Source: Desulfurellales bacterium (GTDB taxonomy: Bacteria; Campylobacterota_A; Desulfurellia; Desulfurellales; Hippeaceae). Taken from it: a DNA stretch of 26,807 bases. The notes under the pieces are model-generated. The model was not told the origin of the DNA. It worked only from the letters and a program-made list of their open reading frames with translations, and did no database searches. The position numbers were made by a program, and so were the translations under genes. The stretch lies in NCBI GenBank assembly GCA_027074255.1, contig JALTDI010000108.1, forward strand, positions 1 through 26,807. Reading direction: 5' to 3'. The number at the start of each line of letters is the position of its first letter. The stretch's first letter is position 1. Of this stretch, positions 2,570 through 21,591 are shown piece after piece.

Positions 2570-4202
2570 GCCACTTTTAAAGCTATATCCTCTTAAAAAG
2601 CACTCTAATCTGTTAGAACACGATAATCTTGCCGTTTTCATAAACTACGGACAAAAATCTTTAAATCTCGGTTATAGTGTGACGTCTATTTTATCAAAGC
2701 ATGATGAGATAAATATTGCTGTTTTGTTTGGATATTCGGGCTCATTAAACGATGAGTTTAAGATAGGGGATGTTTTTTTCGGCAGGAAAGTAAAGCTTAT
2801 GCACAATAAAAAACCGGTTTTTAATCCCATTGATATGCCTTATATCAGGGGTGAAAAATCGGCTGAAATGATTAGTCTGCTTGATGAGTATGATACAGAT
2901 AATGAATTTTTAAGTCTATTTGCCGATACGGTTGATAAAGAGAGCTATTTTTTTGCCAAAGCGACAAAGAGCGTCAATAAATTCGGTTTAGTGCTGAGGG
3001 TGATAAGCGATGATAATTCAGGTATGGCATCAGCCGATTTTGCAAGAAAAAATTTTCGCTGCGATGTAGCTAAGGTGAAAGACATAATTGATAAATTGCT
3101 GTTAATAGAAAAGGACAGCGTTCTTTTTGAGATATTCAGATATACGGGTATTTTTGATATAAACGTTTTGAAAGGGCTTGGAAAGTTGATTGCAAAGCGC
3201 AGGTTGACATTTTCTCTAAGACAGAAACTCTACAAAAAAATCAAAATCAATATGTCAAAACCGTATAAGCCGAAAAAAATCACCAAACCTGCAATATTTT
3301 TGGAAAAAGGGGTTGATAAAAGCAGGATAGGCATTCGCATTGATAAAAAAAGATGCTTTGAAATTGACGATTATACGGCATATTTTCACAATCTGTCGGA
3401 TAGAATGGCTTTTATTTTTGCAGACAAAAAGGGAGAATTTTTGAGAAAAACGCCCGATAGCTACACGCCGGACAAATCATACGGATATTCAATTCTTAAT
3501 GCCTATAATTGTCTATACGACTGTTCATACTGTTTTTTGAAGGGTTATTTTAAAAGTTTTAATCCTGTTGTTTTTTTAAATTATGAGGACTATTTCAAAG
3601 CCGTTGAGGATACTTTGGAAAAGGATAAAAAACGTCCCTTATATTTTTATTCTGGAACATTTTCCGATTCTTTGTCTTTCGGTGCATTTTGTGATTTTAA
3701 TTTGAGACTTGTTGAGTTTTTTAAAGGCATTGATGAGGATATTTATCTTGAATTAAGAACAAAATCAGACAGTATTGAAGAGCTGAGCAAGCTTGAACCG
3801 AGTAAAAAAATAATTGCTGCATTTTCTCTAAACCCGCAAATTATCATAGACAAATATGAGCATTTTACGCCTAATCTTGAAAGAAGACTTGCCGCAATTA
3901 GGAAACTTGACGATAAAGGTTTTCAAATAGGCATAAGATTTGACCCTGTTTTTGTGGATTATATCGATGAGTATACAGAGTTGATAAACAAGATAAAAAC
4001 GATAAAAAACCTCCATTCCGTGGAGATAGGTTTTTTGAGATACGATAAGAACGACTATGCAAATCTGCTTATCAAAAATGCTTCCATATTAAAAAAACTT
4101 ATACCAGCTGATGGAATGTATAGATATCCGAATGACAAAAGAGCCGAGTATGTAGGCATTTTTTCAAAATTGATGCATAAATTTTATGTAAATATGGAAT
4201 AA
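2532..4202 (+). CDS. Fusion: N-terminal MTA/SAH nucleosidase / nucleoside phosphorylase-like domain plus C-terminal spore photoproduct lyase (SplB)-like radical SAM domain
   Basis: N-terminus has GYSGSL...IGDV, VDKESY and LRVISD (PNP_UDP_1-type motifs). C-terminus has NCLYDCSYCFL (CxxxCxxC), YSGTFSDSL, LELRTKS, AFSLNP and IGIRFDP, as in SplB-family proteins. Confidence 0.75.
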   Translation: MLLLVSEHKAEIEPLLKLYPLKKHSNLLEHDNLAVFINYGQKSLNLGYSVTSILSKHDEINIAVLFGYSGSLNDEFKIGDVFFGRKVKLMHNKKPVFNPIDMPYIRGEKSAEMISLLDEYDTDNEFLSLFADTVDKESYFFAKATKSVNKFGLVLRVISDDNSGMASADFARKNFRCDVAKVKDIIDKLLLIEKDSVLFEIFRYTGIFDINVLKGLGKLIAKRRLTFSLRQKLYKKIKINMSKPYKPKKITKPAIFLEKGVDKSRIGIRIDKKRCFEIDDYTAYFHNLSDRMAFIFADKKGEFLRKTPDSYTPDKSYGYSILNAYNCLYDCSYCFLKGYFKSFNPVVFLNYEDYFKAVEDTLEKDKKRPLYFYSGTFSDSLSFGAFCDFNLRLVEFFKGIDEDIYLELRTKSDSIEELSKLEPSKKIIAAFSLNPQIIIDKYEHFTPNLERRLAAIRKLDDKGFQIGIRFDPVFVDYIDEYTELINKIKTIKNLHSVEIGFLRYDKNDYANLLIKNASILKKLIPADGMYRYPNDKRAEYVGIFSKLMHKFYVNME

Positions 4203-4228
4203 AGATTTATTTCTTTATTTGTGAAAAA

Positions 4229-4242
4229 TTGATATAGGTCAA
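4229..4242. promoter_or_regulatory. Crp/Fnr-family (FNR/DNR/NnrR/HcpR-like) binding site
   Basis: TTGAT-ATAG-GTCAA, a 9/10 match to TTGAT-N4-ATCAA. Centred at 4235.5, about 41 nt upstream of the start predicted from the extended -10 at 4261-4269. Confidence 0.7.
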
Positions 4243-4260
4243 GGAAATGGAATTCAGCAG

Positions 4261-4269
4261 TGCTATAAT
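4261..4269 (+). promoter_or_regulatory. Extended -10 element of putative activator-dependent nos promoter P1
   Basis: TG-C-TATAAT, a perfect extended -10. There is no good -35, and the Fnr-like box occupies the class II activator position. Confidence 0.65.
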
Positions 4270-4288
4270 TAAATAACAAGGAGAGAAA

Positions 4289-4360
4289 ATGTTGAAGCAG
4301 GATTTCATTGTGCGCTATATCTCTGTAAAAGGAGAAATTATTGTTATTAAATATAATTGA
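4289..4360 (+). CDS. Putative 23-aa leader/upstream ORF (MLKQDFIVRYISVKGEIIVIKYN)
   Basis: AAGGAG at 4278-4283, ATG 5 nt later, TGA at 4358-4360. No family recognised. Confidence 0.3.
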   Translation: MLKQDFIVRYISVKGEIIVIKYN

Positions 4361-4385
4361 CAAAAATAAATATTTTATGTAATAT
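4357..4385 (+). promoter_or_regulatory. Sigma70-type promoter P2 upstream of nosZ
   Basis: TTGACA (4357-4362), 17 nt spacer, TAATAT (4380-4385). Confidence 0.6.
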
Positions 4386-4456
4386 TTTAGTAAGAAAAAT
4401 TAGCAGGTAGTTTTTGTTTCACATATATTTAGTTTTATTGTTTTGAGGAGGTGTTT

Positions 4457-6520
4457 ATGGATAAGGATAAGAAAAAAGGCGGGGTGTCAAGAAGAACCAT
4501 ACTTAAACGAGCGGCCATTGGTGGTATAGGCGCTGCTGCGCTTGGTGCGGGGCTATCTGCCACTAAAACACCCAAAGCCGATGCAGCCGGGATTTCCGGT
4601 GAATTGGCAAAGGTGATGAAGGAAAGAAATCTTACCCCCGATAATGTTCTTGCTGCTGCAAAGACGTATATCCCAGAAGGCGTACATGATCCTTATATCT
4701 GTTTGTCATCCGGTGGACAGAGCGGCCATTTGTTTCTTTATGGTGTTCCTTCAATGAGACTTATTAAAACTATAGCTGTTTTTGCTCCAGAGACATGGCA
4801 GGGCTGGGGGTATGATAAGGAATCACAGGAAATTATTAAACAGGGCTCTGTTCTGGGAAGACCTGTTCATACCGGCGATACTCACCATCCTGGATTTTCA
4901 GAAACAAAGGGTGATTATGATGGTGAATATGCTTTTATTAATGATAAGAGCCAGGGTAGAATAGCTGTTATAGACACTCGTGACTGGCAGACAAAGCAAA
5001 TTGTTAAAAACCCTGTGTTGAAATCTACACACGGCGGAACAAGCGTCACTCAGAACACGGAATATATCTTTACAGCCTGTCAGTATGCTGCACCGTATGA
5101 TAATAAGTATCATGATCCTATGGATCAGGAAGTTTACAACACAATTTTTAGAGGAGGCCATACATACTGGAAGTTCGATAGGAAAAAAGGCAAAGTGGAT
5201 ATGGAAAATTCATTTACCATTGAATTGCCGCCATATATGCAGGATATTAACGACTGCGGTAAATTAATGAGTGGTGACTGGGGTTTTTCTAATTCTTTCA
5301 ATACGGAAAGGTACACAGGCGGAATAGAACGTGGTATGCCTCCGTTTGAGGCAGGTTGTTCTGCAAACGATACCGACTTCATTCATATGACAAACTGGAA
5401 AAAGGCTGAAGAGGTTATTAAGAAGGGTAATTATAAGACGATTAATGGTCACAAGGTCATACCTATTAAGGTTGCTGTTGAAAACGGTCTTGTCTATTTA
5501 ATACCTGTTATGAAGAGTCCTCACGGAATAACAGTTAGTCCGGATGGCAGGTATATTTTGGCATCGGGTAAACTGGATACTCACACCTCTGTTTACGATT
5601 TCAAAAAGATTCAGCACCTGATAGAAAACAAGATATACGACGGAAGAGATCCCTACGGACTTCCCATTCTCTCAATGAGAAGGACACTTCATGGTATGGT
5701 ACAAACTGGTCTTGGTCCTTTGCATAACCAGTTTGACGTTGCTGACACCCATATAGCATACAACTCTCTCTTTGTTGATTCGGCAATCGTTAAGTATGAT
5801 TATTTAAAACTCAAAGTTTTGGACAGGATACCTATTCATTATAATGTAGGCCACTTGACAGCCGTTCACGGTGATACGGTAAATCCGAGAGGGAAATATT
5901 TAATTTCTCTAAACAAACTTGCTATTGATAGATTTGCTGATGTTGGTCCTCTGCATCCTCAAAACCACGAATTGATAGATATATCTGATCCTTTGAATAA
6001 AAAAATGAGAATGCTCTATGCTATGCCTTTCCCGCTTGGCGAACCTCACTATGCACAGATTATAGAGACAAAGACAGTTGAAAAGAGAGCATGGAAGGTA
6101 TATCCTCTTGGAACAGACCCGGTAACTATGGCAAGATCACCCAACAGAACTCTTGCAGGCCGTGAGAAAATCGTAAGAAAAGGCAACCATGTAGAGGTTT
6201 GGGGAACAGCAATCAGGAGTCACTTCAATCCTGAGCATATATACTGCAAGGTCGGAGATAAGGTTACTATTCATATAACGAACCTCGAAAGGGCTGAGGA
6301 TGAGACCCACGATTTTGGAGTTTACTACTTCAATGTAACAGCATCACTGGAGCCCGGAAAAACTGCTACCGTTGAATTTGTGGCTGATAAAGAGGGAATA
6401 TATCCGTTCTATTGCCAGGAATTCTGCTCTGCTCTGCACCTTGAAATGTTTGGCTACATAGCCGTATTGCCAAAAGACGGTAAATTCCCCGAAGGTGCAT
6501 TCTTTAACAAGGAAGGCTAA
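4457..6520 (+). CDS. nosZ: Nitrous oxide reductase, clade II type, with Tat signal peptide
   Basis: All seven CuZ His motifs are present (DTHH, THGG, SPHG, GPLH, NVGH, GEPH). CuA site is ETHDF plus CQEFCSALHLEM. Clade II-type N-terminal core DPY...SGGQSG...GVPSMRL.K.I.VF. Signal SRRTILK, h-region, ADA cleavage site. RBS GAGGAGG favours ATG 4457 over the ORF-track start at 4451. Confidence 0.97.
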   Translation: MDKDKKKGGVSRRTILKRAAIGGIGAAALGAGLSATKTPKADAAGISGELAKVMKERNLTPDNVLAAAKTYIPEGVHDPYICLSSGGQSGHLFLYGVPSMRLIKTIAVFAPETWQGWGYDKESQEIIKQGSVLGRPVHTGDTHHPGFSETKGDYDGEYAFINDKSQGRIAVIDTRDWQTKQIVKNPVLKSTHGGTSVTQNTEYIFTACQYAAPYDNKYHDPMDQEVYNTIFRGGHTYWKFDRKKGKVDMENSFTIELPPYMQDINDCGKLMSGDWGFSNSFNTERYTGGIERGMPPFEAGCSANDTDFIHMTNWKKAEEVIKKGNYKTINGHKVIPIKVAVENGLVYLIPVMKSPHGITVSPDGRYILASGKLDTHTSVYDFKKIQHLIENKIYDGRDPYGLPILSMRRTLHGMVQTGLGPLHNQFDVADTHIAYNSLFVDSAIVKYDYLKLKVLDRIPIHYNVGHLTAVHGDTVNPRGKYLISLNKLAIDRFADVGPLHPQNHELIDISDPLNKKMRMLYAMPFPLGEPHYAQIIETKTVEKRAWKVYPLGTDPVTMARSPNRTLAGREKIVRKGNHVEVWGTAIRSHFNPEHIYCKVGDKVTIHITNLERAEDETHDFGVYYFNVTASLEPGKTATVEFVADKEGIYPFYCQEFCSALHLEMFGYIAVLPKDGKFPEGAFFNKEG

Positions 6521-6539
6521 AATTTGAAAGGAGTGGGCT

Positions 6540-6926
6540 ATGAAGAGATTGTTGAGAATTGAAATTGTATTGTTTGCCGTAGTAGCACTATTGAGTTTGG
6601 GTTCGGTTAGCTCGTTTGCCGGCCAAAACTATAAGGCTCTCTACCAAAAAACAATAAAGACAAATGACGGTATAAGGCATCAGATAAAAATAGTTAAGGC
6701 AAAGCTATTAAAAGCCGGCTATAAAAAGAACACCACAGCAGTCGGAATAATGAGCGATGCAAATGACCAGATAAAATATGCAAACGAAGTGAGAACTAAG
6801 TCTGATAAATTGGCAAAAGAGGGTAAATATAAGTCCGCTTATTTGTGGGCTTATCAGGAATTCCAATATCTTGTAAAGGCTGTTGTTAAATTGAATGTTA
6901 TAAATAACCTGTTAACATCTAAATAA
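6540..6926 (+). CDS. Secreted alpha-helical protein of unknown function (nos accessory X1; paralog of 8189-8584)
   Basis: RBS AAGGAG, Sec signal ending SFA-G, no Cys or heme motif. Shares N(Y/F)..Y.K...TN.G and AK..K(Y/W)..AY(L/I)WA..E(F/W).YL with X2. Confidence 0.8.
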   Translation: MKRLLRIEIVLFAVVALLSLGSVSSFAGQNYKALYQKTIKTNDGIRHQIKIVKAKLLKAGYKKNTTAVGIMSDANDQIKYANEVRTKSDKLAKEGKYKSAYLWAYQEFQYLVKAVVKLNVINNLLTSK

Positions 6927-6946
6927 TTTTAAGGGTTTATTATTTA

Positions 6947-6984
6947 GGGGACGAAACCTAAAACGGCTTTGTCCCCGTATTTTT
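6947..6984 (+). terminator. Intercistronic hairpin (partial terminator or mRNA stabiliser)
   Basis: GGGGACGAAACC-TAAAAC-GGCTTTGTCCCC imperfect stem followed by GTATTTTT. Confidence 0.55.
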
Positions 6985-6995
6985 GGAGGCTTGTT

Positions 6996-7403
6996 ATGAA
7001 AAAGAGTTTAATGGGTATCGCAATGGCGGTAATAATGCTGGCAGTGGGATTGAATTCGGCTAATACTTTTGCAGCCGGCAGTAAAACATTAACAAAGCAG
7101 GATATTTCAAAGCTGAGGGATGTTTTTGATAATTACGGCTGCAGCGGCTGCCATATGTATATGCACAAAGACAGTACCTCAGGTCCGGCTGTGGCTGTCA
7201 TAGCGGCATTGTCAAAAGCAAAACCTGAAAAATGGGTTATAAGCTGGATTATGAATCCAAAGCCACACTATGCAGAGCCGGACGTTAAAGCTTTAATCAA
7301 TCAATATGTTCAGTATATGCCTAACAACGGCGTAAAGAAGGAAGACGCCAAAAAGCTGTATGACTACTTAATGGCGGTGGCAGATGGAAAAGTAAAAAAA
7401 TAA
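6996..7403 (+). CDS. Periplasmic monoheme cytochrome c (NosC-like)
   Basis: Sec signal, CSGCH heme motif, distal YMPN Met and W..WI.NP motif. RBS GGAGG supports ATG 6996. Confidence 0.88.
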   Translation: MKKSLMGIAMAVIMLAVGLNSANTFAAGSKTLTKQDISKLRDVFDNYGCSGCHMYMHKDSTSGPAVAVIAALSKAKPEKWVISWIMNPKPHYAEPDVKALINQYVQYMPNNGVKKEDAKKLYDYLMAVADGKVKK

Positions 7404-7409
7404 GGAGAT

Positions 7410-8192
7410 ATGGCAAAAGTGAAATTGGAAAAATTCCAAATTTATGGATTAATAGGAGCGGCTGTTTTTTTTGTGGCTCTTTTGTGGCCTAAGGTTTATG
7501 ATAAAAATGTTTATCAAAATAAATTGAATGCATCAAGAGTCGAAATGGTTTACGGCTTAAAGGGTTTTGTAAAGAACTGGGAGTATTTGGGTAGGAAGAT
7601 ACCCCGATTTGTTGTGCCTGTCGGTTCCAAGGTTATTGTTCCTCGCGGAAATCCTCTATGGAGAATCATACTTGATGCCCCTCAGTATCCAAGAACCGCT
7701 TTTCCCGACGGTCTGCTGGTCAATATTTATATTAACGGGCCTGCTAACGGGTGTAAAACCATGTCTTGTTTGCATGAGATAGATACGATTAATCACTATA
7801 TAGGTATGCAGTCTTTGAGTATAGCATCTCCCGTTATGAGCAGAATAGGCGGGTATCTCGCTTTTTTTATGTTTTTATCTTTACTTGTTTTTGTGTTCGT
7901 CAAAAAGAGGCTGCTCGGGTATCTTGTGATTTTGCCTCTTGTGACTCCGTTCATATTTTTAACCGTATTTTCTTTTTGGACGCATTGGTTGGGGTACAAT
8001 TTAAACGCGTGGGCATCGTTTAAGGTCCATGAATTTACTCCTATTCTCTACGGCATAGGAAAGGTTGCCCAGTTTTCTACACATAACAGGCCTGCTATCG
8101 GGTTTTCTATTCTTTTGATTTCTGTTGTGTTTATATCACTGTCGTATCTTTCAAAAAGAAAATATTTAAAGCAGGAAGGACTTTTGAAATGA
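7410..8192 (+). CDS. nosB: NosB, clade II nos membrane protein
   Basis: PLW.I.L.APQYP...GL and HEIDTINHYIGM conserved blocks, one N-terminal and three C-terminal TM segments, located in the nos cluster. Confidence 0.85.
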   Translation: MAKVKLEKFQIYGLIGAAVFFVALLWPKVYDKNVYQNKLNASRVEMVYGLKGFVKNWEYLGRKIPRFVVPVGSKVIVPRGNPLWRIILDAPQYPRTAFPDGLLVNIYINGPANGCKTMSCLHEIDTINHYIGMQSLSIASPVMSRIGGYLAFFMFLSLLVFVFVKKRLLGYLVILPLVTPFIFLTVFSFWTHWLGYNLNAWASFKVHEFTPILYGIGKVAQFSTHNRPAIGFSILLISVVFISLSYLSKRKYLKQEGLLK

Positions 8193-8584
8193 AAACAGCT
8201 CGTTTACCGTTTATATTAGCTGTCTTTGTTAGCGTGGTTTTTTTAACAAGCACTGCATCTGCTGGTAATTTTCAAGATAAATACAACAAACAGCTGATGA
8301 CAAACAGGGGAATGGTCGCAACCGATTTTATGATATTCACGTGGTTTAAGCAGCATCCAGAATATAAGCAGTATGAATCTATTAAAGACAGGGTAGATTA
8401 TTTTTATAAAGAACTCGAACAAGCAAAGCAGGCGCATTTTCGAGCTCTATCATTTGCCAAGGATAAAAAATGGCAAGACGCATATATTTGGGCGAAAAAA
8501 GAATGGAAATATTTGAATGATATTGCAGTTAAGGGCAAAAAAACGCAGGATAATCTGATGGAGCTAGAAAGTAAAAAGGAATAG
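8189..8584 (+). CDS. Secreted alpha-helical protein of unknown function (nos accessory X2; paralog of 6540-6926)
   Basis: ATGA overlap with the nosB stop, Sec signal ending ASA-G, and the motifs shared with X1. Confidence 0.8.
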   Translation: MKTARLPFILAVFVSVVFLTSTASAGNFQDKYNKQLMTNRGMVATDFMIFTWFKQHPEYKQYESIKDRVDYFYKELEQAKQAHFRALSFAKDKKWQDAYIWAKKEWKYLNDIAVKGKKTQDNLMELESKKE

Positions 8585-8593
8585 GAGCCATAA

Positions 8594-9130
8594 ATGAACA
8601 GATTTTTAAAACTTGCTTTGCCGATTCTGATACCGATTTTGGGTATGGGTATAATTTTTATAGTTATATTCGGTATTCCCAAGAAAAATAATGCTATGAA
8701 GCCTGTTCCTATACGGTGGGGAGAAGATGTATGCGTCAGATGCGATATGAGCATAGTGGACGGTTATCATGCAGCTGAAATTATTAACCCTGTAACAAAA
8801 AAGGCGTATAAATTTGACGATATCGGCTGTGCAGTTATATGGCTCTATAAAGAACACAAATTTAAGTGGGCAGATAGGGCTGTTATTTGGGTCACAAGTG
8901 CAAAAAACGGTGCGTGGCTTTATGCCAAAAAGGCCTGCTGGGTTAGCGGACAGATAACACCTATGGGCTTCGGTTTCGGAGCATATAAAGAAAAACCGCA
9001 TCAATATAAAGAATGCATACCTTGGAAAACTGTTGTGAAAACCATATTCAAAAAAGAAGAGAAATTTGAAAAAGCCCTCTACGGCGGATATCCCTCAGGA
9101 GGCACCTCGGATAATGCTTCAAAAAAATAA
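8594..9130 (+). CDS. nosL: NosL-family copper chaperone (copy 1, N-terminal TM anchor)
   Basis: CVRCDM (CxxCxM), YKFDDIGCA and TPMGFGFGAY motifs. Confidence 0.88.
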   Translation: MNRFLKLALPILIPILGMGIIFIVIFGIPKKNNAMKPVPIRWGEDVCVRCDMSIVDGYHAAEIINPVTKKAYKFDDIGCAVIWLYKEHKFKWADRAVIWVTSAKNGAWLYAKKACWVSGQITPMGFGFGAYKEKPHQYKECIPWKTVVKTIFKKEEKFEKALYGGYPSGGTSDNASKK

Positions 9131-10382
9131 GCTTATATATTTGACTGTTATTGCAGTTATATTGTTTTCCCTCAATGTTAAGGCAAATACTTTGCAGGAT
9201 ATAATAGATAAGACAGCGCCCGGCGGCATAATAAAATTAAAAAAGGATATATATTACGGCGACATTATTATTAAAAAACCTTTAACACTTGACGGAGGTA
9301 GTCAGGCCATAATAGACGGCGAAGGGAAGGGTAATGTAATAACTGTTTTGTCGGACAATGTTACAATTAAGAACCTTATTATTCAAAACTCCGGTGAGCA
9401 GGGCTGGGAAATGGATGCAGGTATTGCTGTCAAAAGGGCAAATCATATAAAAATACTGCATAATATTATAAAGAACTGCTTGTATGGAATACAGACGAAA
9501 TATATGAACCATAGTTTGATTGCATACAACAATATAACGTCAAAACCTTATAAACAGGTAGGGCTGCGCGGAGATGCCATCAGACTTTGGTGGAGTAATT
9601 ATGATTTACTGAAAGGTAATTACGTACATGATTCAAGGGATTTGATTGTGTGGTTCTGTCGACACGATACTATTCAAGACCAAACAACCGTCAGGTCGAG
9701 ATATGGTATTCACTTTATGTATTCAAACTACGACAAGGTTGTAAACTATCGCGGAGACCGCAATATGGTCGGAATATACGATATGTACACAACACACGTT
9801 GAAATAGACGGCGCTTTGATTACAAACAACACGACGGTAACGGCAATAGGATTAGGTTTGAAAGACGCAAGCAACCTTGTAGCAAAAAATGTTACCGTAG
9901 AACACTGCACGAGGGGTGTGTTTATCGATGAATCGCCTTATGAGCCTGGCATGAGCTGCAAATTTGTAAACGATAGGTTTTATTACAACACCATAGCAAT
10001 GGATTTTAACACGGACGTTACCAGAAACAAAAATATATTTACACACGACGATTTTGTCGGTAATTTCAAGGACGTAAGGGTAAGCGGAGGAATGCTAGAT
10101 AAAAAAAGAGGGATTTGGAGCAATGATTATTGGGACAGGTATGTAGGCTATGATTCAAACGGGGATGGTATAGGTGATTTGCCTTTTTTTGAAATGAAGT
10201 ATTCCGGCGTTATATCTGAGGATAATCCTAATCTAAGACTTTTTACAGGCTCACCTATATTTACTTTCATAGACTTTATAGAAAAACTTATACCGTTTTC
10301 AAAACCAAGCATTCTTCTTGTGGATAAAAAACCTTTGATGAGATTGTATTTACCCAAATTACATAAAAAAGGAGAAGATTGA
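9114..10382 (+). CDS. nosD: NosD periplasmic copper-transfer protein (CASH beta-helix)
   Basis: RGDAIRLW, SRD, RYGIHFMYS...MY (His/Met/Met) and YWDRY.GYD.NGDGIGD motifs. The signal peptide and a GGAGG RBS fit ATG 9114. Confidence 0.92.
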   Translation: MLQKNKLIYLTVIAVILFSLNVKANTLQDIIDKTAPGGIIKLKKDIYYGDIIIKKPLTLDGGSQAIIDGEGKGNVITVLSDNVTIKNLIIQNSGEQGWEMDAGIAVKRANHIKILHNIIKNCLYGIQTKYMNHSLIAYNNITSKPYKQVGLRGDAIRLWWSNYDLLKGNYVHDSRDLIVWFCRHDTIQDQTTVRSRYGIHFMYSNYDKVVNYRGDRNMVGIYDMYTTHVEIDGALITNNTTVTAIGLGLKDASNLVAKNVTVEHCTRGVFIDESPYEPGMSCKFVNDRFYYNTIAMDFNTDVTRNKNIFTHDDFVGNFKDVRVSGGMLDKKRGIWSNDYWDRYVGYDSNGDGIGDLPFFEMKYSGVISEDNPNLRLFTGSPIFTFIDFIEKLIPFSKPSILLVDKKPLMRLYLPKLHKKGED

Positions 10383-10383
10383 G

Positions 10384-11079
10384 ATGGACAGACGCATCTT
10401 TGTGAAGTATCTAAGCATGACAGTTGTAGGAACGGCTGTTGGAGTTGGTGTTACTCCTCTTTTGACAGAGGAACAGCAGACATTGTTGAGGCCGCCGGGT
10501 GCTATTAATGAAAAGGATTTTCTCGGAGCCTGTATAAAATGCGGATTGTGTGTTCAGATATGTCCTGTTGATGCCATTAAGCTGGCTGATATCAATAAAG
10601 GACTATCCTACCAAACGCCGTACATGGATGCCAGAACAAATGCCTGTGATTTTTCCTGCAAAGGTATTCAGTGTGTTCTCGTGTGCCCGACATACGCATT
10701 GGTGCATGAGCTTGCCGAAAATGCCGAGGCGGTTCGCATCGGTCTTGCGGTTGTTAAGCCGGATCTATGCCTTGCGGTTAAAGGTGAAAAATTGAAAACA
10801 AAATCTAAACATAAATGGGATGAATGGAAATATAAATGGAAAGTTAACCCCGCTTCTTATACCAAAGAGATATGCAACTTATGCTACGATAAGTGTCCGA
10901 TTGGACCCGGAGCCATTACAATAGAAGAAAGAAAAGATAAAAAGACAGGCAGGACTTATCAGATTCCTGTTGTTAAAAGCGGATGTACGGGCTGCGGCGT
11001 ATGCGAAATGGTTTGTCCGGCCGAACCGGCCGCCATTGTAATTATTCCCGGAATGAAATGGGGTGAGAAAAATGGATAA
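10384..11079 (+). CDS. nosG: NosG (NapG/MauM-like) periplasmic polyferredoxin
   Basis: Tat motif DRRIFVK, LRPPGA and four 4Fe-4S Cys sets (CIKCGLCVQICP; CDFSC...C..VCP; C...CNLCYDKCP; CTGCGVCEMVCP). Confidence 0.9.
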   Translation: MDRRIFVKYLSMTVVGTAVGVGVTPLLTEEQQTLLRPPGAINEKDFLGACIKCGLCVQICPVDAIKLADINKGLSYQTPYMDARTNACDFSCKGIQCVLVCPTYALVHELAENAEAVRIGLAVVKPDLCLAVKGEKLKTKSKHKWDEWKYKWKVNPASYTKEICNLCYDKCPIGPGAITIEERKDKKTGRTYQIPVVKSGCTGCGVCEMVCPAEPAAIVIIPGMKWGEKNG

Positions 11080-11998
11080 TAAAAATATAAAAACTGAAAA
11101 CAAGATACAAAGTAAAGAAAAGGTGAAAAGGGGTAACTTTTACGAACTGTTTATCAATACGAGAAAAATAAGACCCAAGCGTATATCGTATAGATGCGTA
11201 AGATGGTTTTCCATAATTCTTATAGCCGCAACTTTTGCACTTTCATTTAAATGGGCGCTTGATTTTCTTGCAGGGAGCCTTAACGGCTCAAGACTGATGA
11301 GTTTTTTCCTGATTGACCTATATACGGGACTTGAATATGTTGTAGCCCATAAAATGATTACGATGAATGCGGTCATTGGTTTTCTGACTATTTTGGCTTT
11401 TTACTTTATAGTTGGCGGCAGGACGTTTTGCGGTTGGGTTTGTCCATATAATCTGCTTGCCGAGTTAGGCGAGATAATCCATGAATATTTGAGAAAAAAG
11501 GGAATAATTAAAAAAAGAAGAATGTATTCAGAACATGTGAGATATGTATTTTGGGTTATATTTATATTGATACCGCTGATAACGGGTGTGATTTTCTTTG
11601 AATCCTTTAATCCGGTTGACATACTAAACAGGGCTTTTATTTACGGACCCACGGTTTTGCTTTTATGGGTGCTGCTGCTTTTGAGCATTGAGGTTTTTTA
11701 CGCCAGGCGATTCTGGTGTAAATATGTGTGTCCGACAGGAACAACATACGGCATGCTCGGTAAAGTAAGTATGCTGCGGGTTAAATTCGATTTGAATAAT
11801 TGCACCCACTGCGGCAACTGCTATAAAGTGTGCATAGAACCGACGCTGCTTACCGACGCCTTAAAGGAATCGCACGATACTCAGGATAAAACGGCATTTG
11901 TCAAGGGCGCCGCATGTATAAACTGTGCACGCTGTATTGATGTTTGCGCTTATGATGCTTTAAAGTTTGATTTAAGGTATTTGGATAAAATACTCTGA
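11072..11998 (+). CDS. nosH: NosH (NapH-like) membrane polyferredoxin, quinol dehydrogenase component
   Basis: Four TM segments, CGWVCP and WCKYVCP motifs, and C-terminal CTHCGNCYKVC and CINCARCIDVC clusters. Confidence 0.9.
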   Translation: MDNKNIKTENKIQSKEKVKRGNFYELFINTRKIRPKRISYRCVRWFSIILIAATFALSFKWALDFLAGSLNGSRLMSFFLIDLYTGLEYVVAHKMITMNAVIGFLTILAFYFIVGGRTFCGWVCPYNLLAELGEIIHEYLRKKGIIKKRRMYSEHVRYVFWVIFILIPLITGVIFFESFNPVDILNRAFIYGPTVLLLWVLLLLSIEVFYARRFWCKYVCPTGTTYGMLGKVSMLRVKFDLNNCTHCGNCYKVCIEPTLLTDALKESHDTQDKTAFVKGAACINCARCIDVCAYDALKFDLRYLDKIL

Positions 11999-12013
11999 TT
12001 GGAGGCCGATTTT

Positions 12014-12658
12014 TTGATTGATATTAAAGGGCTTGGAAAGGATTTTGGCAAGGGCATAGTGCTTCATGATATAAACTTACATATTGGAAAGGGCGAGAGA
12101 ATCATGGTTGTAGGCGGAAACGGAAGTGGAAAGACTACAATGCTGCGCTGTATAATTGGTTCTTATGTCTATAAAGGCGAAATAAGAATTATGGATATGG
12201 AGGCAAGGCACAATAAAAGCAAACTTGCCAATTATATAGGGTATGTACCTCAAATCCCTCCGCCGATTCTTATGACAGTTCAGCAGCTGATAGAATTCAT
12301 TTGCAATATAGATAACAAACAGGATGAAGAAAATGTTATATACGATGTTTTGAAGAAGCTTCAATTCGAGGATATCGGTATAAAAAGACACTTTAAAAAA
12401 CTTTCCGGAGGCATGCAGAAAAAGGTCTTGATGGCAATAGCTTTGGGAAGACAGCCGAATATTTTAGTATTAGATGAACCGCTTGCCTATATAGATCCGG
12501 ATAGCAGGGTCATAATTTCCAATGTTGTCAATGCCATGCCGAATGATTTAACACTGATTTATACGTCACACAGAGAAGAAAAGGGCAGTATAAGGGCAGA
12601 TAGAATCATAGAAATGGATAACGGAGAAATTATTAGGGATGAACCCTATTCATCATAA
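12014..12658 (+). CDS. nosF: NosF ABC ATPase
   Basis: Walker A GGNGSGKT, signature LSGGMQKK, Walker B ILVLDEP. GGAGG at 12001-12005 supports TTG 12014. Confidence 0.88.
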   Translation: MIDIKGLGKDFGKGIVLHDINLHIGKGERIMVVGGNGSGKTTMLRCIIGSYVYKGEIRIMDMEARHNKSKLANYIGYVPQIPPPILMTVQQLIEFICNIDNKQDEENVIYDVLKKLQFEDIGIKRHFKKLSGGMQKKVLMAIALGRQPNILVLDEPLAYIDPDSRVIISNVVNAMPNDLTLIYTSHREEKGSIRADRIIEMDNGEIIRDEPYSS

Positions 12659-13278: not shown

Positions 13279-14106
13279 TTGAGAAATTTAATCAATATGG
13301 TTGTTTTTGAGATAAAGGATTCCTTTAGAGGAAAATGGTTTTATATCTATTTTGTCATTTTTTTCGGATTAATGGTTGGATTTTTGTGGTCGGGTATAAC
13401 TGCTTCTCAGGTTTTGGGATTTACGGGTTTATCCAGGGTTTTGATTGGCTATATTGAGATTACGATAATTGTTTTGCCTCTGTTTATTTTAATAAGCGCA
13501 TCGAGGTCTGTGGTTATGGAAAGAGAGCTTTTTATCCTTGAGTACCTCGTTTCCTTTCCTTTGTCCATATCTCAATATTATTGGGGTAAATTCATAGGTA
13601 GGTTTATAGTTATCATTATACCTATCTATACGGCTTTGCTTGCAAGCTTGATATGGGGATTGACAAAGCATTTTACCATACCTTTGGGATTGTACGCCAT
13701 ATATTCTGGTTTGGTAGCAGCTTTGTCCTTGTGTTTCCTCGGTATATCATATTTTATTTCTTCTTTGTCGCAGAGGCAGGATACGGCTATATTCACAGCA
13801 TTCTTTGTTTGGTTTTTCTTCGTTATTCTCCTTGATGTGGGTATTTTGGGTCTTTTTCTGCAGTTTGGCATAAACTTAAACCTTGTTCTTGCAATGGCCC
13901 TTGCCAACCCTCTGGAGTTGTTTCGTATAGCGGCTTTCAGCCTTTTTGACACCAAATTGGCGGTTATAGGACCGATTGCATGGACTCTTTTGAGTAAAAT
14001 CGGCAATAACGGACTTTTGATTTTTTCTTATATATATCCTGTTGTTACGGGGCTTTTCATAGGTTTTATAGGCCTTGTCTATTTTAAAAAGAATGACTAT
14101 ATTTAA
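13279..14106 (+). CDS. nosY: NosY ABC permease
   Basis: About six TM helices with E.KDS.R.KW, ERE...LEYL.SFP, GKF.GR and NPL.LFR motifs; located in the nos cluster. Confidence 0.88.
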   Translation: MRNLINMVVFEIKDSFRGKWFYIYFVIFFGLMVGFLWSGITASQVLGFTGLSRVLIGYIEITIIVLPLFILISASRSVVMERELFILEYLVSFPLSISQYYWGKFIGRFIVIIIPIYTALLASLIWGLTKHFTIPLGLYAIYSGLVAALSLCFLGISYFISSLSQRQDTAIFTAFFVWFFFVILLDVGILGLFLQFGINLNLVLAMALANPLELFRIAAFSLFDTKLAVIGPIAWTLLSKIGNNGLLIFSYIYPVVTGLFIGFIGLVYFKKNDYI

Positions 14107-15106: not shown

Positions 15107-16117
15107 ATGGGAAAAAAGAAAATTAATAAAGTGGGATGGTGGTTCCTTGGAGTAGGAGCAGTTATTTTATTTATAGTTGCTCTTAATATGTTTCACGAGT
15201 ACGGCAGCAGCGGTAAAGTTAAGCTTCTCTCAAAGGCCACTGTTGACGGTAAATTAAACCCCGGTGAATATACCAACAGTTTTACAGATAAGAAAAACGG
15301 GTACAAACTGTATTGGAGAATAAGCGGTAAAAACATATATTTTGGTATGCATTCGCCCAAAAAAGGTTGGGTTGCTGTCGGTCTCGGCGCAAAGAAAGCC
15401 ATGCAGGATGCAGATATATATATTGCTTATGTAAAGGACGGCAAAGCACATATAAGAGAAGAATGGGGAAACACCCCTTATTCACATATACCGATAAAAA
15501 ATATGGGTGAAAAAAATGACGTGGAAAAATATGCCGGTAAGATAAATTCAAACGGTATAGATATTGAATTTGAAAGGCCTCTGAAAGTTTTACAGAAGCA
15601 TACAAAATCCATAGAAAAAAGGGACATGAACGTTATATTTGCTTTTTCCACTGCTGCCGATTTTACGACATATCACGGTGCAGGCTCAAGAGGCTCTACA
15701 AAGATAAACTTCTTTGCAGTCTCAAAGGCAAAAAAGAGTGGCGGCTTAAAGATGTGGGTTGAGGATGTGAAATCGTATCAGATAGCCGCTATTACCTGGG
15801 GAGTCCTGTTTTTAATGGCGGCATTTATAGCTTTTGTCAGTGTTTGGATTGAAAAAGACTCTGACAGCCCGATTCATGTTAGAAAAGAAATTGTTGGAAT
15901 AGGCCCTTTTATTAGCATACTGACTCTCGGTATATTGGATATAATTTTGATCATTGCATTTATAGTCGAACTGTTTTCTAAAACAACTCCGTCTGTTCGA
16001 GGACTTACCGCTTCATTGGTTTTTTTACTGATTGCTGTTATGATTGCTTTGTATAGGCACTACTATATTGATGAAGAGGTTATGGTTCACGAAATGGACG
16101 ATGAGCTTCCATGGTAA
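15107..16117 (+). CDS. Membrane protein with periplasmic DOMON (putative heme b, Met/His) domain and three C-terminal TM helices
   Basis: N-terminal TM, VDGKLNPGEY, GWVAVGLG..KAMQDADI (Met), IEFERPL, FTTYHG (His), three TM helices and an acidic tail ending ELPW. Lies directly upstream of the Rieske gene. Confidence 0.72.
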   Translation: MGKKKINKVGWWFLGVGAVILFIVALNMFHEYGSSGKVKLLSKATVDGKLNPGEYTNSFTDKKNGYKLYWRISGKNIYFGMHSPKKGWVAVGLGAKKAMQDADIYIAYVKDGKAHIREEWGNTPYSHIPIKNMGEKNDVEKYAGKINSNGIDIEFERPLKVLQKHTKSIEKRDMNVIFAFSTAADFTTYHGAGSRGSTKINFFAVSKAKKSGGLKMWVEDVKSYQIAAITWGVLFLMAAFIAFVSVWIEKDSDSPIHVRKEIVGIGPFISILTLGILDIILIIAFIVELFSKTTPSVRGLTASLVFLLIAVMIALYRHYYIDEEVMVHEMDDELPW

Positions 16118-16133
16118 AATTAAGGGGGTAAAA

Positions 16134-16742
16134 ATGGGTGAGAAAAAGATAGTGTATAACGAATGTACAACAAGAAGAAAGATTTTAAAGGGTATGCTGG
16201 GTATTGCCGGTGTCGGAGCTTTGGGCGGATTGACATTGTCTTTTGGAACAATCAAATCTCCCTCAAATAAGAAAAAGAGGCAAAAAGTGGCAAAGGGAGA
16301 CAAACTTGTTTTTGCCGTAGGACCCAATGCCGGTAAATTGATAAACATGAAAGATTTGCCGCTCAAAAAAGGAATCCTTGCTTTTCCAAAAGGCAAAGAA
16401 GAACACAATAACCTCATACTGCTGTTTCATGCCGAAGAGAAGGAGTTTCAAAAACCGACAAAGATTGGCTACACCGTCGAGGGTTTTTGTGCATACAGCG
16501 CTATCTGCACACACATGGGATGTACCGTAGAATGGTATCCTCAAAAACAGTTTTCTTTTGATTTTCCACATCTATTTTGTCCGTGCCATCAATCTGTGTT
16601 CGATGTATTTCATGGAGCAAAGGTATTGGCAGGTCCTGCACCGAGGCCGCTCCCTCAACTGCCCTTAATGATAGCCGACAATACAATATCGGCGGCAGGT
16701 GATTTTGACGGACCGATAGGGCCTAAACAGGGGGTGGAGTAG
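16134..16742 (+). CDS. Rieske 2Fe-2S subunit of a Rieske/cytochrome b complex
   Basis: Tat motif TRRKILK, box I CTHMGC, box II CPCHQSVF and GPAPRPLP motif. RBS supports ATG 16134. Confidence 0.93.
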   Translation: MGEKKIVYNECTTRRKILKGMLGIAGVGALGGLTLSFGTIKSPSNKKKRQKVAKGDKLVFAVGPNAGKLINMKDLPLKKGILAFPKGKEEHNNLILLFHAEEKEFQKPTKIGYTVEGFCAYSAICTHMGCTVEWYPQKQFSFDFPHLFCPCHQSVFDVFHGAKVLAGPAPRPLPQLPLMIADNTISAAGDFDGPIGPKQGVE

Positions 16743-16743
16743 C

Positions 16744-17970
16744 ATGTACGATTGGATTAATGAAAGACTTGATTTGGATAGGTTCAAAGATAAATATTTA
16801 ACCAAGGTTTTCCCCGTGCACCCCACATATTTTTTTGGTGAAATAGCTTTATTTAGTTTTGTAATACTTGTGTTGACAGGAATATATCTTTTGTTTAGCT
16901 ATGTTCCTTCATCCGAAATAATAAAGGTCGGCGGCAAAAAAATGCCGGCTGCATACCATAGCATTTTAATGATAAATGCTCAGCCTCTCGGTTTGATGAT
17001 GAGATATGTGCATCACTGGGCTGCTCATATAATGATAGCTGCTGTAATGTTGCATATGGCGAGGGTCTTTTTCTCGGGTTCATTTAAAAAGCCGAGAGAG
17101 ATAAATTGGTTTATAGGTATGATTTTATTAACGCTTGCAATCCTTGCCGGCTTTACGGGCTATTCATTGCCTTTTGATGCTCTTTCAACCGTTGCTACGG
17201 GAATAGGATACGAAATTGCAAATTCCGTGCCCTACATTGGTAATGCCGTTGCAAAATTTGTCTTTGCAGGCAAATTCCCAGCTCCCGGTTCATTGCAGAG
17301 GCTTCTTATGTATCATGTTGTGCTGCTTCCGGCCATAATTGCTGCCGTGATAGGCATTCATATGGCCATAATGGTAAAGCAGAAACATACCCAGCCTTAT
17401 AAGAATAAAGATATTGCAAAAAGCGGCAAAATTCTCGGAATACCATTATATCCGCAGCAGATGAGTCTTATGATGTTCGTTTTTTTCTTTGTTTTTGCAG
17501 TGCTTTTTTTCCTATCAGCATTTTTGCCTGTTCACAATGTTGAATATTTCGGGCCTCCTACACTGCAGACACCCATGGTTAAACCCGACTGGTATTTATT
17601 ATGGATATTCGGCATAATAAAACTAATACCCGGAACATGGAATATACCGCTTAGCGCGACAGCCTCTATAAGCCCTGAGGTGATAGGGGGACTTATTTTG
17701 CCGAGTATTATTATGCTGATAATAGCCATTGTACCGTTTCTTTCATATTCAAAAGAGTCTGTGGATTATTGGGAACCTGCAAGTTTGAGGCCGATAGGGA
17801 CATCTCTTGGAGTATCTTTTATAGTTATGTTTATAGCTTTAAGTGTAACGGGCTACCAGGCTGAGCTCAACATACCGATATCCATATGTAGGATATATAC
17901 AATTGTGCTGCCGGCAATAGGTTTTTTTACAAGCTATTACCTGATTAAGATAAAAAGTATAAAAAAGTGA
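16744..17970 (+). CDS. Cytochrome b subunit (unsplit) of a menaquinol-oxidising Rieske/cyt b complex
   Basis: GEIALFSF..LVLTG, heme His pairs RYVH...LH and YH...IH, GFTGYSLP and Qo motif PDWY. Confidence 0.93.
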   Translation: MYDWINERLDLDRFKDKYLTKVFPVHPTYFFGEIALFSFVILVLTGIYLLFSYVPSSEIIKVGGKKMPAAYHSILMINAQPLGLMMRYVHHWAAHIMIAAVMLHMARVFFSGSFKKPREINWFIGMILLTLAILAGFTGYSLPFDALSTVATGIGYEIANSVPYIGNAVAKFVFAGKFPAPGSLQRLLMYHVVLLPAIIAAVIGIHMAIMVKQKHTQPYKNKDIAKSGKILGIPLYPQQMSLMMFVFFFVFAVLFFLSAFLPVHNVEYFGPPTLQTPMVKPDWYLLWIFGIIKLIPGTWNIPLSATASISPEVIGGLILPSIIMLIIAIVPFLSYSKESVDYWEPASLRPIGTSLGVSFIVMFIALSVTGYQAELNIPISICRIYTIVLPAIGFFTSYYLIKIKSIKK

Positions 17971-17999
17971 TTGACTTGAAAGAGATTTTAGTGGATAAT
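17971..17999 (+). promoter_or_regulatory. Sigma70-type promoter for the downstream cytochrome c gene
   Basis: TTGACT (17971-17976), 17 nt spacer, GATAAT (17994-17999). RBS AGGAGG at 18015-18020. Confidence 0.55.
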
Positions 18000-18028
18000 T
18001 AAAAAAAGAAAAAAAGGAGGATATATTT

Positions 18029-18385
18029 ATGAAAGTAAAGTTTTTGGCAACCGCAGCTTTTGGAGCTTGTATGCTATTTGCAGGCAGCAATATCTCTTTT
18101 GCTGGTGATAAAAGCCCCGGCTATAAATTGGTTAAGGCGAACGGCTGTTTAGCCTGTCACTCTGTGGATCAGAATAAAGTCGGACCCTCTTACAAAGTTA
18201 TAGCCCAAACGAACAAAAAATTGTACGCTAAAGACGCTATAAAGCATATAGAAGAAGCCATAGAAAAGGGTTCAAAAGGTGTGTATAAAAAACTTGGAAT
18301 TACAGCTGTTATGCCTCCCTACGGATATCTTGGAAAAGAAAAGATTGAAACCATAGCAAAGTGGATTTTATCCCAGTCAAAATGA
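18029..18385 (+). CDS. Soluble periplasmic class I cytochrome c (c551/c552-like)
   Basis: Sec signal, GCLACH...VGPSY and distal VMPP Met. Confidence 0.92.
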   Translation: MKVKFLATAAFGACMLFAGSNISFAGDKSPGYKLVKANGCLACHSVDQNKVGPSYKVIAQTNKKLYAKDAIKHIEEAIEKGSKGVYKKLGITAVMPPYGYLGKEKIETIAKWILSQSK

Positions 18386-20957: not shown

Positions 20958-20964
20958 TTTTTCA

Positions 20965-21591
20965 ATGAAAATTACTGCTTTGAGGTTTTTAACAACTGCT
21001 CTGTTTTTTTTGATATTCAGTTTAACCGGGTATGCATATGGAGGGGATGTTTTATATGCATCCTCTCCCGTTAATATCTTTTTGGACAACACGCACACAA
21101 AAGCAATAGGAACAGCTGAAATAGGTGCGAAGGTCTATCAGATAAAAAAGACCGGTCAATGGGTTGAGGTTAAAATCAAAGGGTGGCGGCAGAAAGGCTT
21201 GAAATCCATTATATACGCCTTTATGGGTAAGAGGATTTTAAAGGTTCAATTGACGCCTGTCGGGGAAAAGTTTGTAAATGTCTTAAAGACCATAAAGGAT
21301 AAAGATACGCAGCTGACATGGTATGAGGTTGAAATCAGCAATGTATGGATAAATTCAAAGTACCTTGCTGACAGTATGGACAGCGTATGGCAATCCGTTT
21401 CAAAGCTATTTCACGAAAGATGTTCTATGTGCCACGCTCTGCCGAAATCAACAACATTTACGGCAAATCAGTGGCCGGCAACTCTGCGTGTTATGACAAG
21501 AAGAGCGGCTTTGGATAAAGAGCAGGCTGATGTTGTCTCTAAGTTTTTACAGTATCATGCAAAAGACACGAAAAATTTGAAAGAGGATTAA
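20965..21591 (+). CDS. Monoheme cytochrome c partner of the molybdoenzyme (TorC/DorC C-terminal-domain-like)
   Basis: Sec signal, SH3-like N-terminal region, CSMCH...F.ANQW...M motif; directly downstream of the torA-like gene. Confidence 0.82.
   Translation: MKITALRFLTTALFFLIFSLTGYAYGGDVLYASSPVNIFLDNTHTKAIGTAEIGAKVYQIKKTGQWVEVKIKGWRQKGLKSIIYAFMGKRILKVQLTPVGEKFVNVLKTIKDKDTQLTWYEVEISNVWINSKYLADSMDSVWQSVSKLFHERCSMCHALPKSTTFTANQWPATLRVMTRRAALDKEQADVVSKFLQYHAKDTKNLKED

Follow-up and report, generated by a model that had tools for sequence, protein, structure and literature searches.

A clade II nitrous oxide reductase with a predicted twin-arginine signal in Desulfurellales bacteria

The nitrous oxide reductase (NosZ) encoded by a contig of a Desulfurellales bacterium appears to combine the catalytic core of a clade II enzyme with a signal peptide for the twin-arginine translocation (Tat) system. 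The contig (JALTDI010000108.1, assembly GCA_027074255.1) was analyzed over a stretch of 26,807 nucleotides, hereafter called the window, and its nosZ gene encodes a precursor of 687 amino acids. Most probably, this is an intact clade II enzyme whose ancestral signal for the general secretory (Sec) pathway was exchanged for a Tat signal in the common ancestor of its lineage. That lineage probably consists of the Desulfurellaceae/Hippea vent bacteria together with three relatives of about 75% identity. As the clade of a NosZ is routinely equated with its export route, Tat for clade I and Sec for clade II, the present case is one in which the rule fails, and it does so within the Campylobacterota. 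A sequence-only reading of the window had proposed a Tat signal on a clade II NosZ that ends just past the CuA site and has no fused cytochrome c domain, and the evidence given below agrees with it in each of these respects.

The presequence and the enzyme behind it

The N-terminus of the window NosZ reads MDKDKKKGGVSRRTILKRAAIGGIGAAALGAGLSATKTPKADA followed by AG, with the predicted cleavage site between the two. Its layout, from the motif SRRTILK through a weakly hydrophobic h-region and basic c-region residues to ADA and the alanine behind the cleavage site, is in keeping with textbook Tat signals, which are long, low in hydropathy, basic in the c-region, and closed by A-x-A. The presequence was compared in a lineage alignment of nine proteins, comprising the window protein, three database relatives (74-76% identity), and five orthologues from metagenome-assembled genomes (MAGs; 90-92%). 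Residues V10, S11, R12, R13, L16, K17, A41, A43, and A44 are invariant in all nine, and the h-region in between drifts. At least one lysine or arginine is present in the c-region of every member, and A-x-A is conserved. Among six nucleotide sequences, the invariant residues are encoded by different synonymous codons (AGA, CGA, or AGG for R12; CTT, CTG, or TTA for L16; AAA or AAG for K17). A motif that stays invariant despite such codon turnover has therefore presumably been under selection as a peptide.

The Tat profiles point in the same direction. Over its full length (positions 1-29), TIGR01409 (TAT_signal_seq) aligns to residues 10-43 of the window protein with 16.6 bits, the cut-off being 16.7, and it scores 22.3 and 16.7 bits on the N-termini of the orthologues L001 and L004, respectively. 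When whole proteins were scanned at E ≤ 0.1, the Tat-target model TIGR02811 matched 9/9 lineage members and TIGR01409 6/9. Both models are absent from the list of 25 families obtained for 60 Sec-type neighbors, at most one of which could still match. Other proteins of the window score 15.2 bits (the NapG-like NosG), 13.6 bits (the Rieske protein), and 26.7 bits (a TorA-like reductase) with TIGR01409. The three come from families with an established use of Tat, and the NosZ N-termini score no lower than NosG and the Rieske protein. Given the score of the TorA-like reductase, the organism therefore appears to use the Tat system.

Length and hydropathy also set the lineage apart. Measured up to a fixed landmark in the mature protein, the presequence is 48-49 residues long in the lineage, versus 24-44 residues (median 30.5) among the 60 Sec-type neighbors, and the most hydrophobic stretch of 12 residues has a Kyte-Doolittle mean of 1.74 versus a median of 2.36. 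In the closest Nitrospirota relatives, the hydropathy of the h-region is about 3.1. In this lineage alone, the alignment of the clade I model begins at model position 2, which falls on residues 10-11, whereas in the Sec-type relatives it begins at model positions 33-43. These profile and feature comparisons replaced a loose regular expression for Tat motifs, as the latter also matched four short, Sec-looking signals (P0037, P0073, P0096, and P0097) among the 120 sequences listed. Taken together, these comparisons favor a Tat signal over other readings of the NosZ presequence, as a prediction from sequence.

The start of the gene is consistent with this presequence. The ATG at 4457 is preceded by a Shine-Dalgarno sequence whose GGAGG core lies 5 nt away, and the residues that would be translated from the DNA immediately 5' of this ATG are likewise conserved across the loci, which is consistent with a shared ribosome-binding site. 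The only alternative in-frame start 5' of the h-region is a GTG at codon 10, which still lies ahead of SRR; thus, no alternative start drops the arginine pair yet retains the h-region. The reading frame closes with the stop codon at 6518-6520. It lies within a long array of genes on the same strand, in a window with a G+C content of 38%. A promoter-like site was also noted upstream of nosZ, but such sites are as numerous in the region as expected from shuffled sequence, which makes it weak evidence.

Behind the presequence, the protein is a clade II enzyme by every model applied. It scores 771.3 bits with the clade II model TIGR04246 (cut-off 625), 380.7 bits with the clade I model TIGR04244 (under its cut-off of 625), and 190.4 bits with NF052460, the model for the clade III lactonase-type enzymes (under its cut-off of 700), which covers the C-terminal half only. 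Its CuA loop reads C-x-E-F-C, in the clade II style, rather than the C-x-W-F-C of clade I. In NCBIfam, TIGR04246 is named 'Sec-dependent nitrous-oxide reductase' and TIGR04244 'TAT-dependent', so the window protein would be labeled Sec-dependent; the concern that standard clade assignments mislead for this lineage was thus well placed.

Pfam recognizes the propeller repeat and the CuA domain (Cupredoxin_1 and COX2). Among solved structures, the best matches all belong to clade I (about 280 bits), and the alignment to PDB 1qni stops at query residue 669, which corresponds to residue 577 of the 581 in the chain. Sequence identity to these solved NosZ structures settles the predicted fold. In the alignment with 1qni, His143, His144, His192, His356, His423, His466, and His531 correspond to the CuZ ligands H79, H80, H128, H270, H325, H376, and H437, and the CuA ligands are His618, Cys653, Cys657, His661, and Met664. 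All of them are invariant in the nine lineage members. The chain ends at residue 687, 23 residues past Met664, the last CuA ligand, and a search of the whole protein for CxxCH, and hence for a fused cytochrome c domain, found none. By its sequence, therefore, the enzyme looks intact, of clade II, and haem-free.

Phylogenetic position and relatives

Two maximum-likelihood trees were calculated under LG+G4 with 1000 ultrafast bootstraps and the Shimodaira-Hasegawa-like approximate likelihood ratio test, one from 56 rows (tree 1) and one from 60 (tree 2). The columns excluded the signal peptides and the C-terminal extensions, and the outgroup consisted of clade I sequences chosen by their TIGR04244 scores. 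LG+G4 is not a mixture model, and several long branches were flagged, none of them in or adjoining the lineage. With clade I as the outgroup, the window NosZ lies inside clade II under four supported nodes, and its placement outside clade I, as first read from the motifs, is borne out by both trees. The Tat lineage is monophyletic in both (100/100), which also upholds the earlier proposal of a distinct NosZ lineage. In both trees it is nested in a clade with support of 100/99-100, the rest of which is Sec-type. This enclosing clade includes Sec-type NosZ of 649 residues, some with the source names Dissulfurispiraceae or Nitrospirae; cNosZ enzymes of about 864 residues with a haem domain, the named ones being Campylobacterota; and enzymes of about 765 residues, whose named members are Beta- and Gammaproteobacteria and Myxococcota. 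The sister of the Tat lineage differs by tree, being the Nitrospirota sequences in tree 1 (88/97) and all the rest in tree 2 (82/70).

Two other groups of clade II enzymes have Tat-type signals. An archaeal group, found through a search with P0126, has the arginine pair in 32/32 members (P0272-P0303). For two of its clusters, the source is given as Caldiarchaeum subterraneum or Thaumarchaeota archaeon. Even so, 'Sec-dependent nitrous-oxide reductase' is the title of one or more of the database entries in this group. The second group, recovered by the same search, comprises seven sequences with M-x-x-TRREL signals (P0321, P0329, P0373, P0376, P0377, P0386, and P0387). In tree 2, the window lineage, the archaeal group, and the TRREL group are each monophyletic (100/100) and stand apart, separated by supported branches, and the minimum number of changes in signal type is three. 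Forcing all 18 Tat-type clade II sequences together costs 367.6 log-likelihood units and is rejected by the approximately unbiased (AU) test (p-AU 1.3e-69). The replacement of a Sec by a Tat signal thus appears to be local to this lineage and independent of the known Tat-type clade II enzymes. Most likely, the signal peptide was exchanged in situ, inside a subclade of Sec-type enzymes. As the rule fails in this lineage through an event of its own, signal type would be labile and not a marker of clade.

The lineage is represented by nosZ orthologues of 90-92% identity in six genome records (three named Desulfurellaceae bacterium and one each named Hippea sp., uncultured Desulfurellales, and Desulfurellales bacterium). 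In the protein database, it comprises the window's own NosZ cluster of 38 sequences and another four clusters, which are 73-75% identical. Their signals all have the form SRRxLLKK, and the remaining sequences among the 120 listed have Sec-looking ones. The nearest relatives beyond the lineage (59-64% identity) are Sec-type, and the named ones are from Nitrospirota and Campylobacterota. The Desulfurellaceae and Hippea are a thermophilic vent group; Hippea species are thermophiles, and some of them are acidophilic.

The closest named relatives are the Sec-type NosZ of 649 residues from Nitrospirota and Dissulfurispiraceae (P0010 and P0022; 61-63% identity), whereas the nearest Sec-type sequences overall are P0007 and P0008 (64%). 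Like the window protein, the 649-residue enzymes match TIGR04246, consist of propeller and CuA domain, contain no CxxCH, and end after CuA. However, their signals are strongly hydrophobic Sec signals of 29-35 residues without an arginine pair, as opposed to a 43-residue Tat-type signal in the window. A Tat-type and a Sec-type NosZ of the same architecture and 61-64% identity form a natural pair, with which the choice of export route could be tested, as could the question of whether folding in the cytoplasm aids maturation under heat or acid.

The cNosZ of Campylobacteria (the Wolinella, Sulfurimonas, and Nitrosophilus type, about 864 residues) has a core 57-59% identical to that of the window enzyme. 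As NCBI taxonomy places the Desulfurellaceae within the Campylobacterota, these enzymes come from the same phylum, and the contrast with the Wolinella type that had been drawn from the sequence is an apt one. Unlike the window protein, cNosZ carries a Sec signal, and a monohaem domain with CxxCH near residue 781 is fused to its C-terminus. The window instead encodes a homologue of this haem domain separately, as a cytochrome c of 144 residues two genes downstream of nosZ. With the nos cluster of the Wolinella type, the window cluster shares the NosG/NosH module and a NosB-like gene.

The Tat-type clade II enzymes of archaea and of a Chloroflexota subgroup resemble the window protein in having a clade II-like core behind a twin-arginine N-terminus. 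The archaeal representative P0126 is 44% identical to the window NosZ and scores 585 bits with TIGR04246, below the cut-off of 625. By eye, the archaeal N-termini inspected have no evident A-x-A past the hydrophobic stretch, whereas the window protein has ADA followed by alanine. Clade I enzymes (TIGR04244; PDB 1qni, 3sbp, and 1fwx) share with the window protein a Tat-type signal and the metal ligands. They differ from it in their CuA loop, and the window protein branches outside them and is encoded without nosR or nosX in the window.

In the passages of PMC11409646 drawn on here, clade II is described as generally Sec-type and accompanied by nosB, with Tat exceptions reported in archaea and in a subgroup of Chloroflexota (its references 9 and 16). 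The same passages describe four MAGs of the Chloroflexota class OLB14 from wastewater treatment plants that pair Tat with nosB. PMC11828985 equates NosZ clade outright with signal type. A Tat signal on a clade II core is thus known, but this lineage, its taxon, and an independent origin of its signal appear to be undescribed. A Tat-type NosZ in Hippea or Desulfurellaceae was not found in the full-text literature searched, mostly without subscription journals, so that an earlier mention is possible.

The prediction that standard primers may miss the lineage also held in silico. The sites of the clade II primers nosZ-II-F and nosZ-II-R, whose sequences are printed in PMC6440730 and PMC11148229, lie at 5711-5727 and 6414-6432 of the window and would delimit a product of 722 bp. 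In 7/7 lineage sequences, the forward primer is mismatched at its 3'-terminal base and the reverse primer at the third and fourth bases counted from the 3' end. L003 and L004 each have one extra mismatch to the forward primer. The mismatches arise because the lineage has Asn for Thr after LGPLH and Gln for Thr in Y-C-T-E-F-C. In the 60 Sec-type neighbors, the latter Thr is invariant and the former is the majority residue. Amplicon surveys of hydrothermal sites may therefore undercount the reducers of nitrous oxide (N2O) that belong to this lineage.

Export, maturation, and alternative explanations

In clade I, the apo-enzyme is exported in folded form by Tat, and copper is added in the periplasm. 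By analogy with this mechanism, we infer folded export and periplasmic copper loading for the present lineage. The seven-bladed propeller and the cupredoxin domain of the precursor would fold in the cytoplasm, free of copper. The Tat translocase would recognize S-R-R-T-I-L-K and export the folded NosZ, and signal peptidase I would cut after A-D-A43. CuA and CuZ would then be loaded in the periplasm by the NosDFY and NosL-like proteins encoded downstream. Electrons from menaquinol may enter through NosGH, the Rieske/cytochrome b complex encoded next to it, or both, and may reach CuA via the separately encoded, Sec-exported monohaem cytochrome c.

The separation of the cytochrome may bear on the choice of route. 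A c-type haem domain is matured in the periplasm from an unfolded chain, which ties the fused cNosZ to Sec. With the cytochrome as a protein of its own, NosZ is therefore free to use Tat. Hence, the absence of a fused haem c domain would be permissive for Tat export, but not sufficient.

Several points weigh against the proposed exchange of a Sec for a Tat signal. The TIGR01409 score of the window protein lies 0.1 bit below the curated cut-off and falls to 13.1 bits in the whole-protein scan, and the Pfam model TAT_signal is silent on the 60 N-terminal residues of NosZ. The second position after the arginine pair is Ile, Leu, or Val in the lineage, whereas the consensus has Phe, and neither tatA nor tatC was found within the window. 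The groups joined in the AU test were defined after tree 1 was known, and rooting on clade I is an assumption. Furthermore, the sister Nitrospirota NosZ is also haem-free yet Sec-type, so that losing the haem domain is not enough to account for the switch. An attractive idea is that cytoplasmic folding would help in hot or acidic surroundings. However, Sec-type NosZ also occurs under the source names Nitrosophilus alvini and Dissulfurispiraceae. As both are thermophilic groups, heat would not be a simple driver of Tat either. A broader proposal, according to which clade II NosZ switched from Sec to Tat at least three times (in Desulfurellia, in the archaeal group containing Caldiarchaeum and Thaumarchaeota, and in the TRREL group) as an adaptation, with the splitting off of the haem as the enabling step, seems to us rather unlikely. 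If it were true, the propeller would fold in the buffered cytoplasm and not in a hot or acidic periplasm, which would enable N2O respiration where Sec-exported NosZ matures poorly.

The marginal profile score and the silence of the Pfam model are also what one would expect if the arginine pair were incidental, NosZ being exported unfolded by Sec and the long N-region being a quirk of the lineage. The clade II family is Sec-type overall, and four other clade II sequences among the 120 listed have an arginine pair in Sec-looking signals. However, an incidental pair would hardly leave V-S-R-R-x-x-L-K invariant in 9/9 members down to 74% identity while the codons vary synonymously. It would also leave to chance that length, hydropathy, and basic c-region residues together distinguish the lineage from the 60 Sec-type neighbors and that the Tat profiles match the lineage and are missing from the family list of those neighbors. 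We consider this explanation improbable. That the signal is a true Tat signal but an ancestral one, kept from a clade I-like Tat ancestor while Sec arose repeatedly nearby, is in our view very improbable. Such retention would suit the Tat-type clade I outgroup and the position of the archaeal Tat-type group, which branches off at an unresolved fork close to where the main radiation of clade II begins, and without a root the counts of changes cannot separate gain from loss. With the root on clade I, however, the lineage is nested among Sec-type enzymes, and at each of three further supported nodes above it, the remaining branches carry only Sec or lipoprotein signals. Four or more independent losses would thus be required for retention, compared with which one gain is far more parsimonious. 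In addition, the presequence cannot be aligned closely with clade I signals beyond the generic motif, and, at present sampling, Sec-type enzymes occur on every branch that links the lineage to the other Tat-type groups.

On sequence alone, it had been suggested for the window that the whole gene was imported, with thermophilic Chloroflexota or archaea as possible donors of a Tat-type clade II enzyme. Donors of this type exist in principle, since Tat-type clade II NosZ has been reported in archaea and a Chloroflexota subgroup (PMC11409646), and an arginine pair in every member of the archaeal group would fit such a source. The lack of synteny with the related MAGs upstream of nosZ would likewise fit a cluster that has moved, or a neighborhood that has been rearranged. 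In contrast, the three Tat-type groups are monophyletic and separate, their joint constraint bears the cost in likelihood given above, and the closest relatives of the lineage (59-64% identity) are Sec-type, with Nitrospirota and Campylobacterota among the named ones. The core is nested among Sec-type enzymes of Nitrospirota, Campylobacterota, and Proteobacteria/Myxococcota, and a Tat-type clade II donor for it was rejected by the AU test. This suggestion has accordingly been given up for the catalytic core, and we regard horizontal acquisition from such a donor as hardly credible. A Tat signal gained in place of a Sec signal within the lineage is the reading that we retain.

The nos cluster and its neighbors

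The features of the nos cluster are collected in Table 1. The cluster is syntenic from nosZ through the Rieske gene in the related loci, with protein identities of 51-88%, and no synteny was found upstream of nosZ between the window and these loci. In L004, positions 4095-9668 upstream of nosZ hold genes for a TonB-dependent receptor, TonB, an uncharacterized protein, and an OmpR-type two-component system, and L003 and L005 have the receptor gene region in common with it. In the window, this place is taken by genes for a LolA-like protein and an SPL-like radical SAM protein. The cluster is therefore not bounded upstream by a conserved junction. The menaquinone decarboxylase encoded in the window has its best match at only 69-70% identity, followed by proteins of Campylobacterota and Aquificota at 57-63%. 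This result is compatible with a Desulfurellia-type vent bacterium as the probable host but is no proof of it.

Table 1. Features of nosZ and the nos cluster in the window
Feature	Position	Strand	Basis
Promoter-like site TTGACA-17 nt-TAATAT, upstream of nosZ	4357..4385	+	10/12 consensus positions; weak
Shine-Dalgarno sequence GGAGGTG	4447..4453	+	sequence; supports ATG 4457 as start
nosZ, clade II nitrous oxide reductase precursor, 687 aa	4457..6520	+	TIGR04246, 771 bits; ligands aligned to 1qni
Predicted Tat signal peptide, residues 1-43, predicted cleavage after ADA43	4457..4585	+	profiles, conservation, hydropathy
Twin-arginine motif S11-R-R-T-I-L-K17	4487..4507	+	S11, R12, R13, L16, K17 invariant 9/9
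CuA cupredoxin domain	6179..6472	+	Cupredoxin_1, COX2 (Pfam)
orf128, small secreted helical-looking protein, paralogue of orf131	6540..6926	+	no Pfam or NCBIfam family
Monohaem cytochrome c (CSGCH), 144 aa, Sec-type signal	6969..7403	+	homology to the cNosZ haem domain
NosB-like integral membrane protein, 260 aa	7410..8192	+	about four hydrophobic segments by eye
orf131, paralogue of orf128	8189..8584	+	pairwise comparison
NosL-like protein 1, 178 aa	8594..9130	+	PF05573, E 0.062, below cut-off
nosD	9066..10382	+	TIGR04247, 346 bits (cut-off 300)
nosG, NapG-type poly-ferredoxin, RR signal MDRRIFVK	10384..11079	+	NCBIfam; TIGR01409, 15.2 bits
nosH, NapH-type membrane quinol dehydrogenase subunit	11063..11998	+	TIGR02163, 244 bits (cut-off 213)
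nosF, ABC ATPase	11999..12658	+	Pfam
NosL-like protein 2 (orf194), 194 aa	12639..13223	+	PF05573, E 0.003, weak
nosY, ABC-2 permease	13279..14106	+	Pfam
Second, shorter NosD-like beta-helix protein, 325 aa	14121..15098	+	TIGR04247, 162 bits, below cut-off 300
DOMON-domain membrane protein	15107..16117	+	Pfam
Rieske Fe-S protein, RR signal TRRKILK	16134..16742	+	Pfam, NCBIfam; TIGR01409, 13.6 bits
Cytochrome b	16744..17970	+	Pfam, NCBIfam
Monohaem cytochrome c, 118 aa	18029..18385	+	Pfam

The sequence-only reading had described a nosB/nosGH cluster without nosR or nosX, and most of this description stands. NosG and NosH are present. Among the 28 open reading frames of the window that were scanned, none matched the ApbE/NosX family, and the sole signal of a NosR model was a partial match of 32 bits on NosH (cut-off 1000). 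The nosB assignment, on the other hand, goes no further than plausible, the 260-residue membrane protein being a candidate NosB by size and position. This protein is 79-84% identical in 6/6 loci and matches only Campylobacterota clusters of 260 residues in the Atlas (score 0.96), and Pfam and NCBIfam scans found no curated family for it.

The 144-residue cytochrome c, the second gene after nosZ, is 29% identical over 108 residues to residues 749-853 of the cNosZ P0122, which form its fused haem domain (pairwise E 6e-12). Its profile matches to cytochrome c models are weak. Translation of this gene probably begins at the ATG in position 6996.

On either side of the cytochrome c and NosB-like genes lie orf128 and orf131, which encode small secreted proteins of 128 and 131 residues, respectively. 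The two products are 26% identical (E 2e-8) and have the motif K-x-x-x-A-Y-x-W-A in common. In 6/6 loci orf128 is kept downstream of nosZ, and both paralogues are conserved in all six. An Atlas search with orf128 gave no match to any named cluster. The pair possibly has a role in the maturation or protection of NosZ. An assignment as the acid-protection pair NosP/NosQ was considered and dropped, as a preprint places nosPQ only in clade I clusters.

Two NosL-like proteins are encoded in the cluster, 55% identical to each other and both with C-x-x-C-x-M; a duplicated copper chaperone within a single nos cluster is unusual. The shorter NosD-like protein, whose gene follows nosY, is conserved in 5/6 loci (57-64% identity). 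The DOMON, Rieske, cytochrome b, and cytochrome c genes (15107-18385) suggest a dedicated bc-type complex beside NosGH. There would thus be two electron modules, NosGH and a bc-type one, in one nos cluster, which is a notable combination.

Beyond the cluster, at 18525-21591, lies the gene region of the TorA-like protein, an S/N-oxide reductase of the TorA/BisC family whose Tat signal is clear. Behind it lies a gene for a protein of 218 residues that matches only the C-terminal half of the pentahaem TorC (profile positions 204-384). On the minus strand (21593-22294), an ankyrin-repeat protein of 233 residues is encoded between this TorC-like gene and one for a protein with a metallo-beta-lactamase fold.

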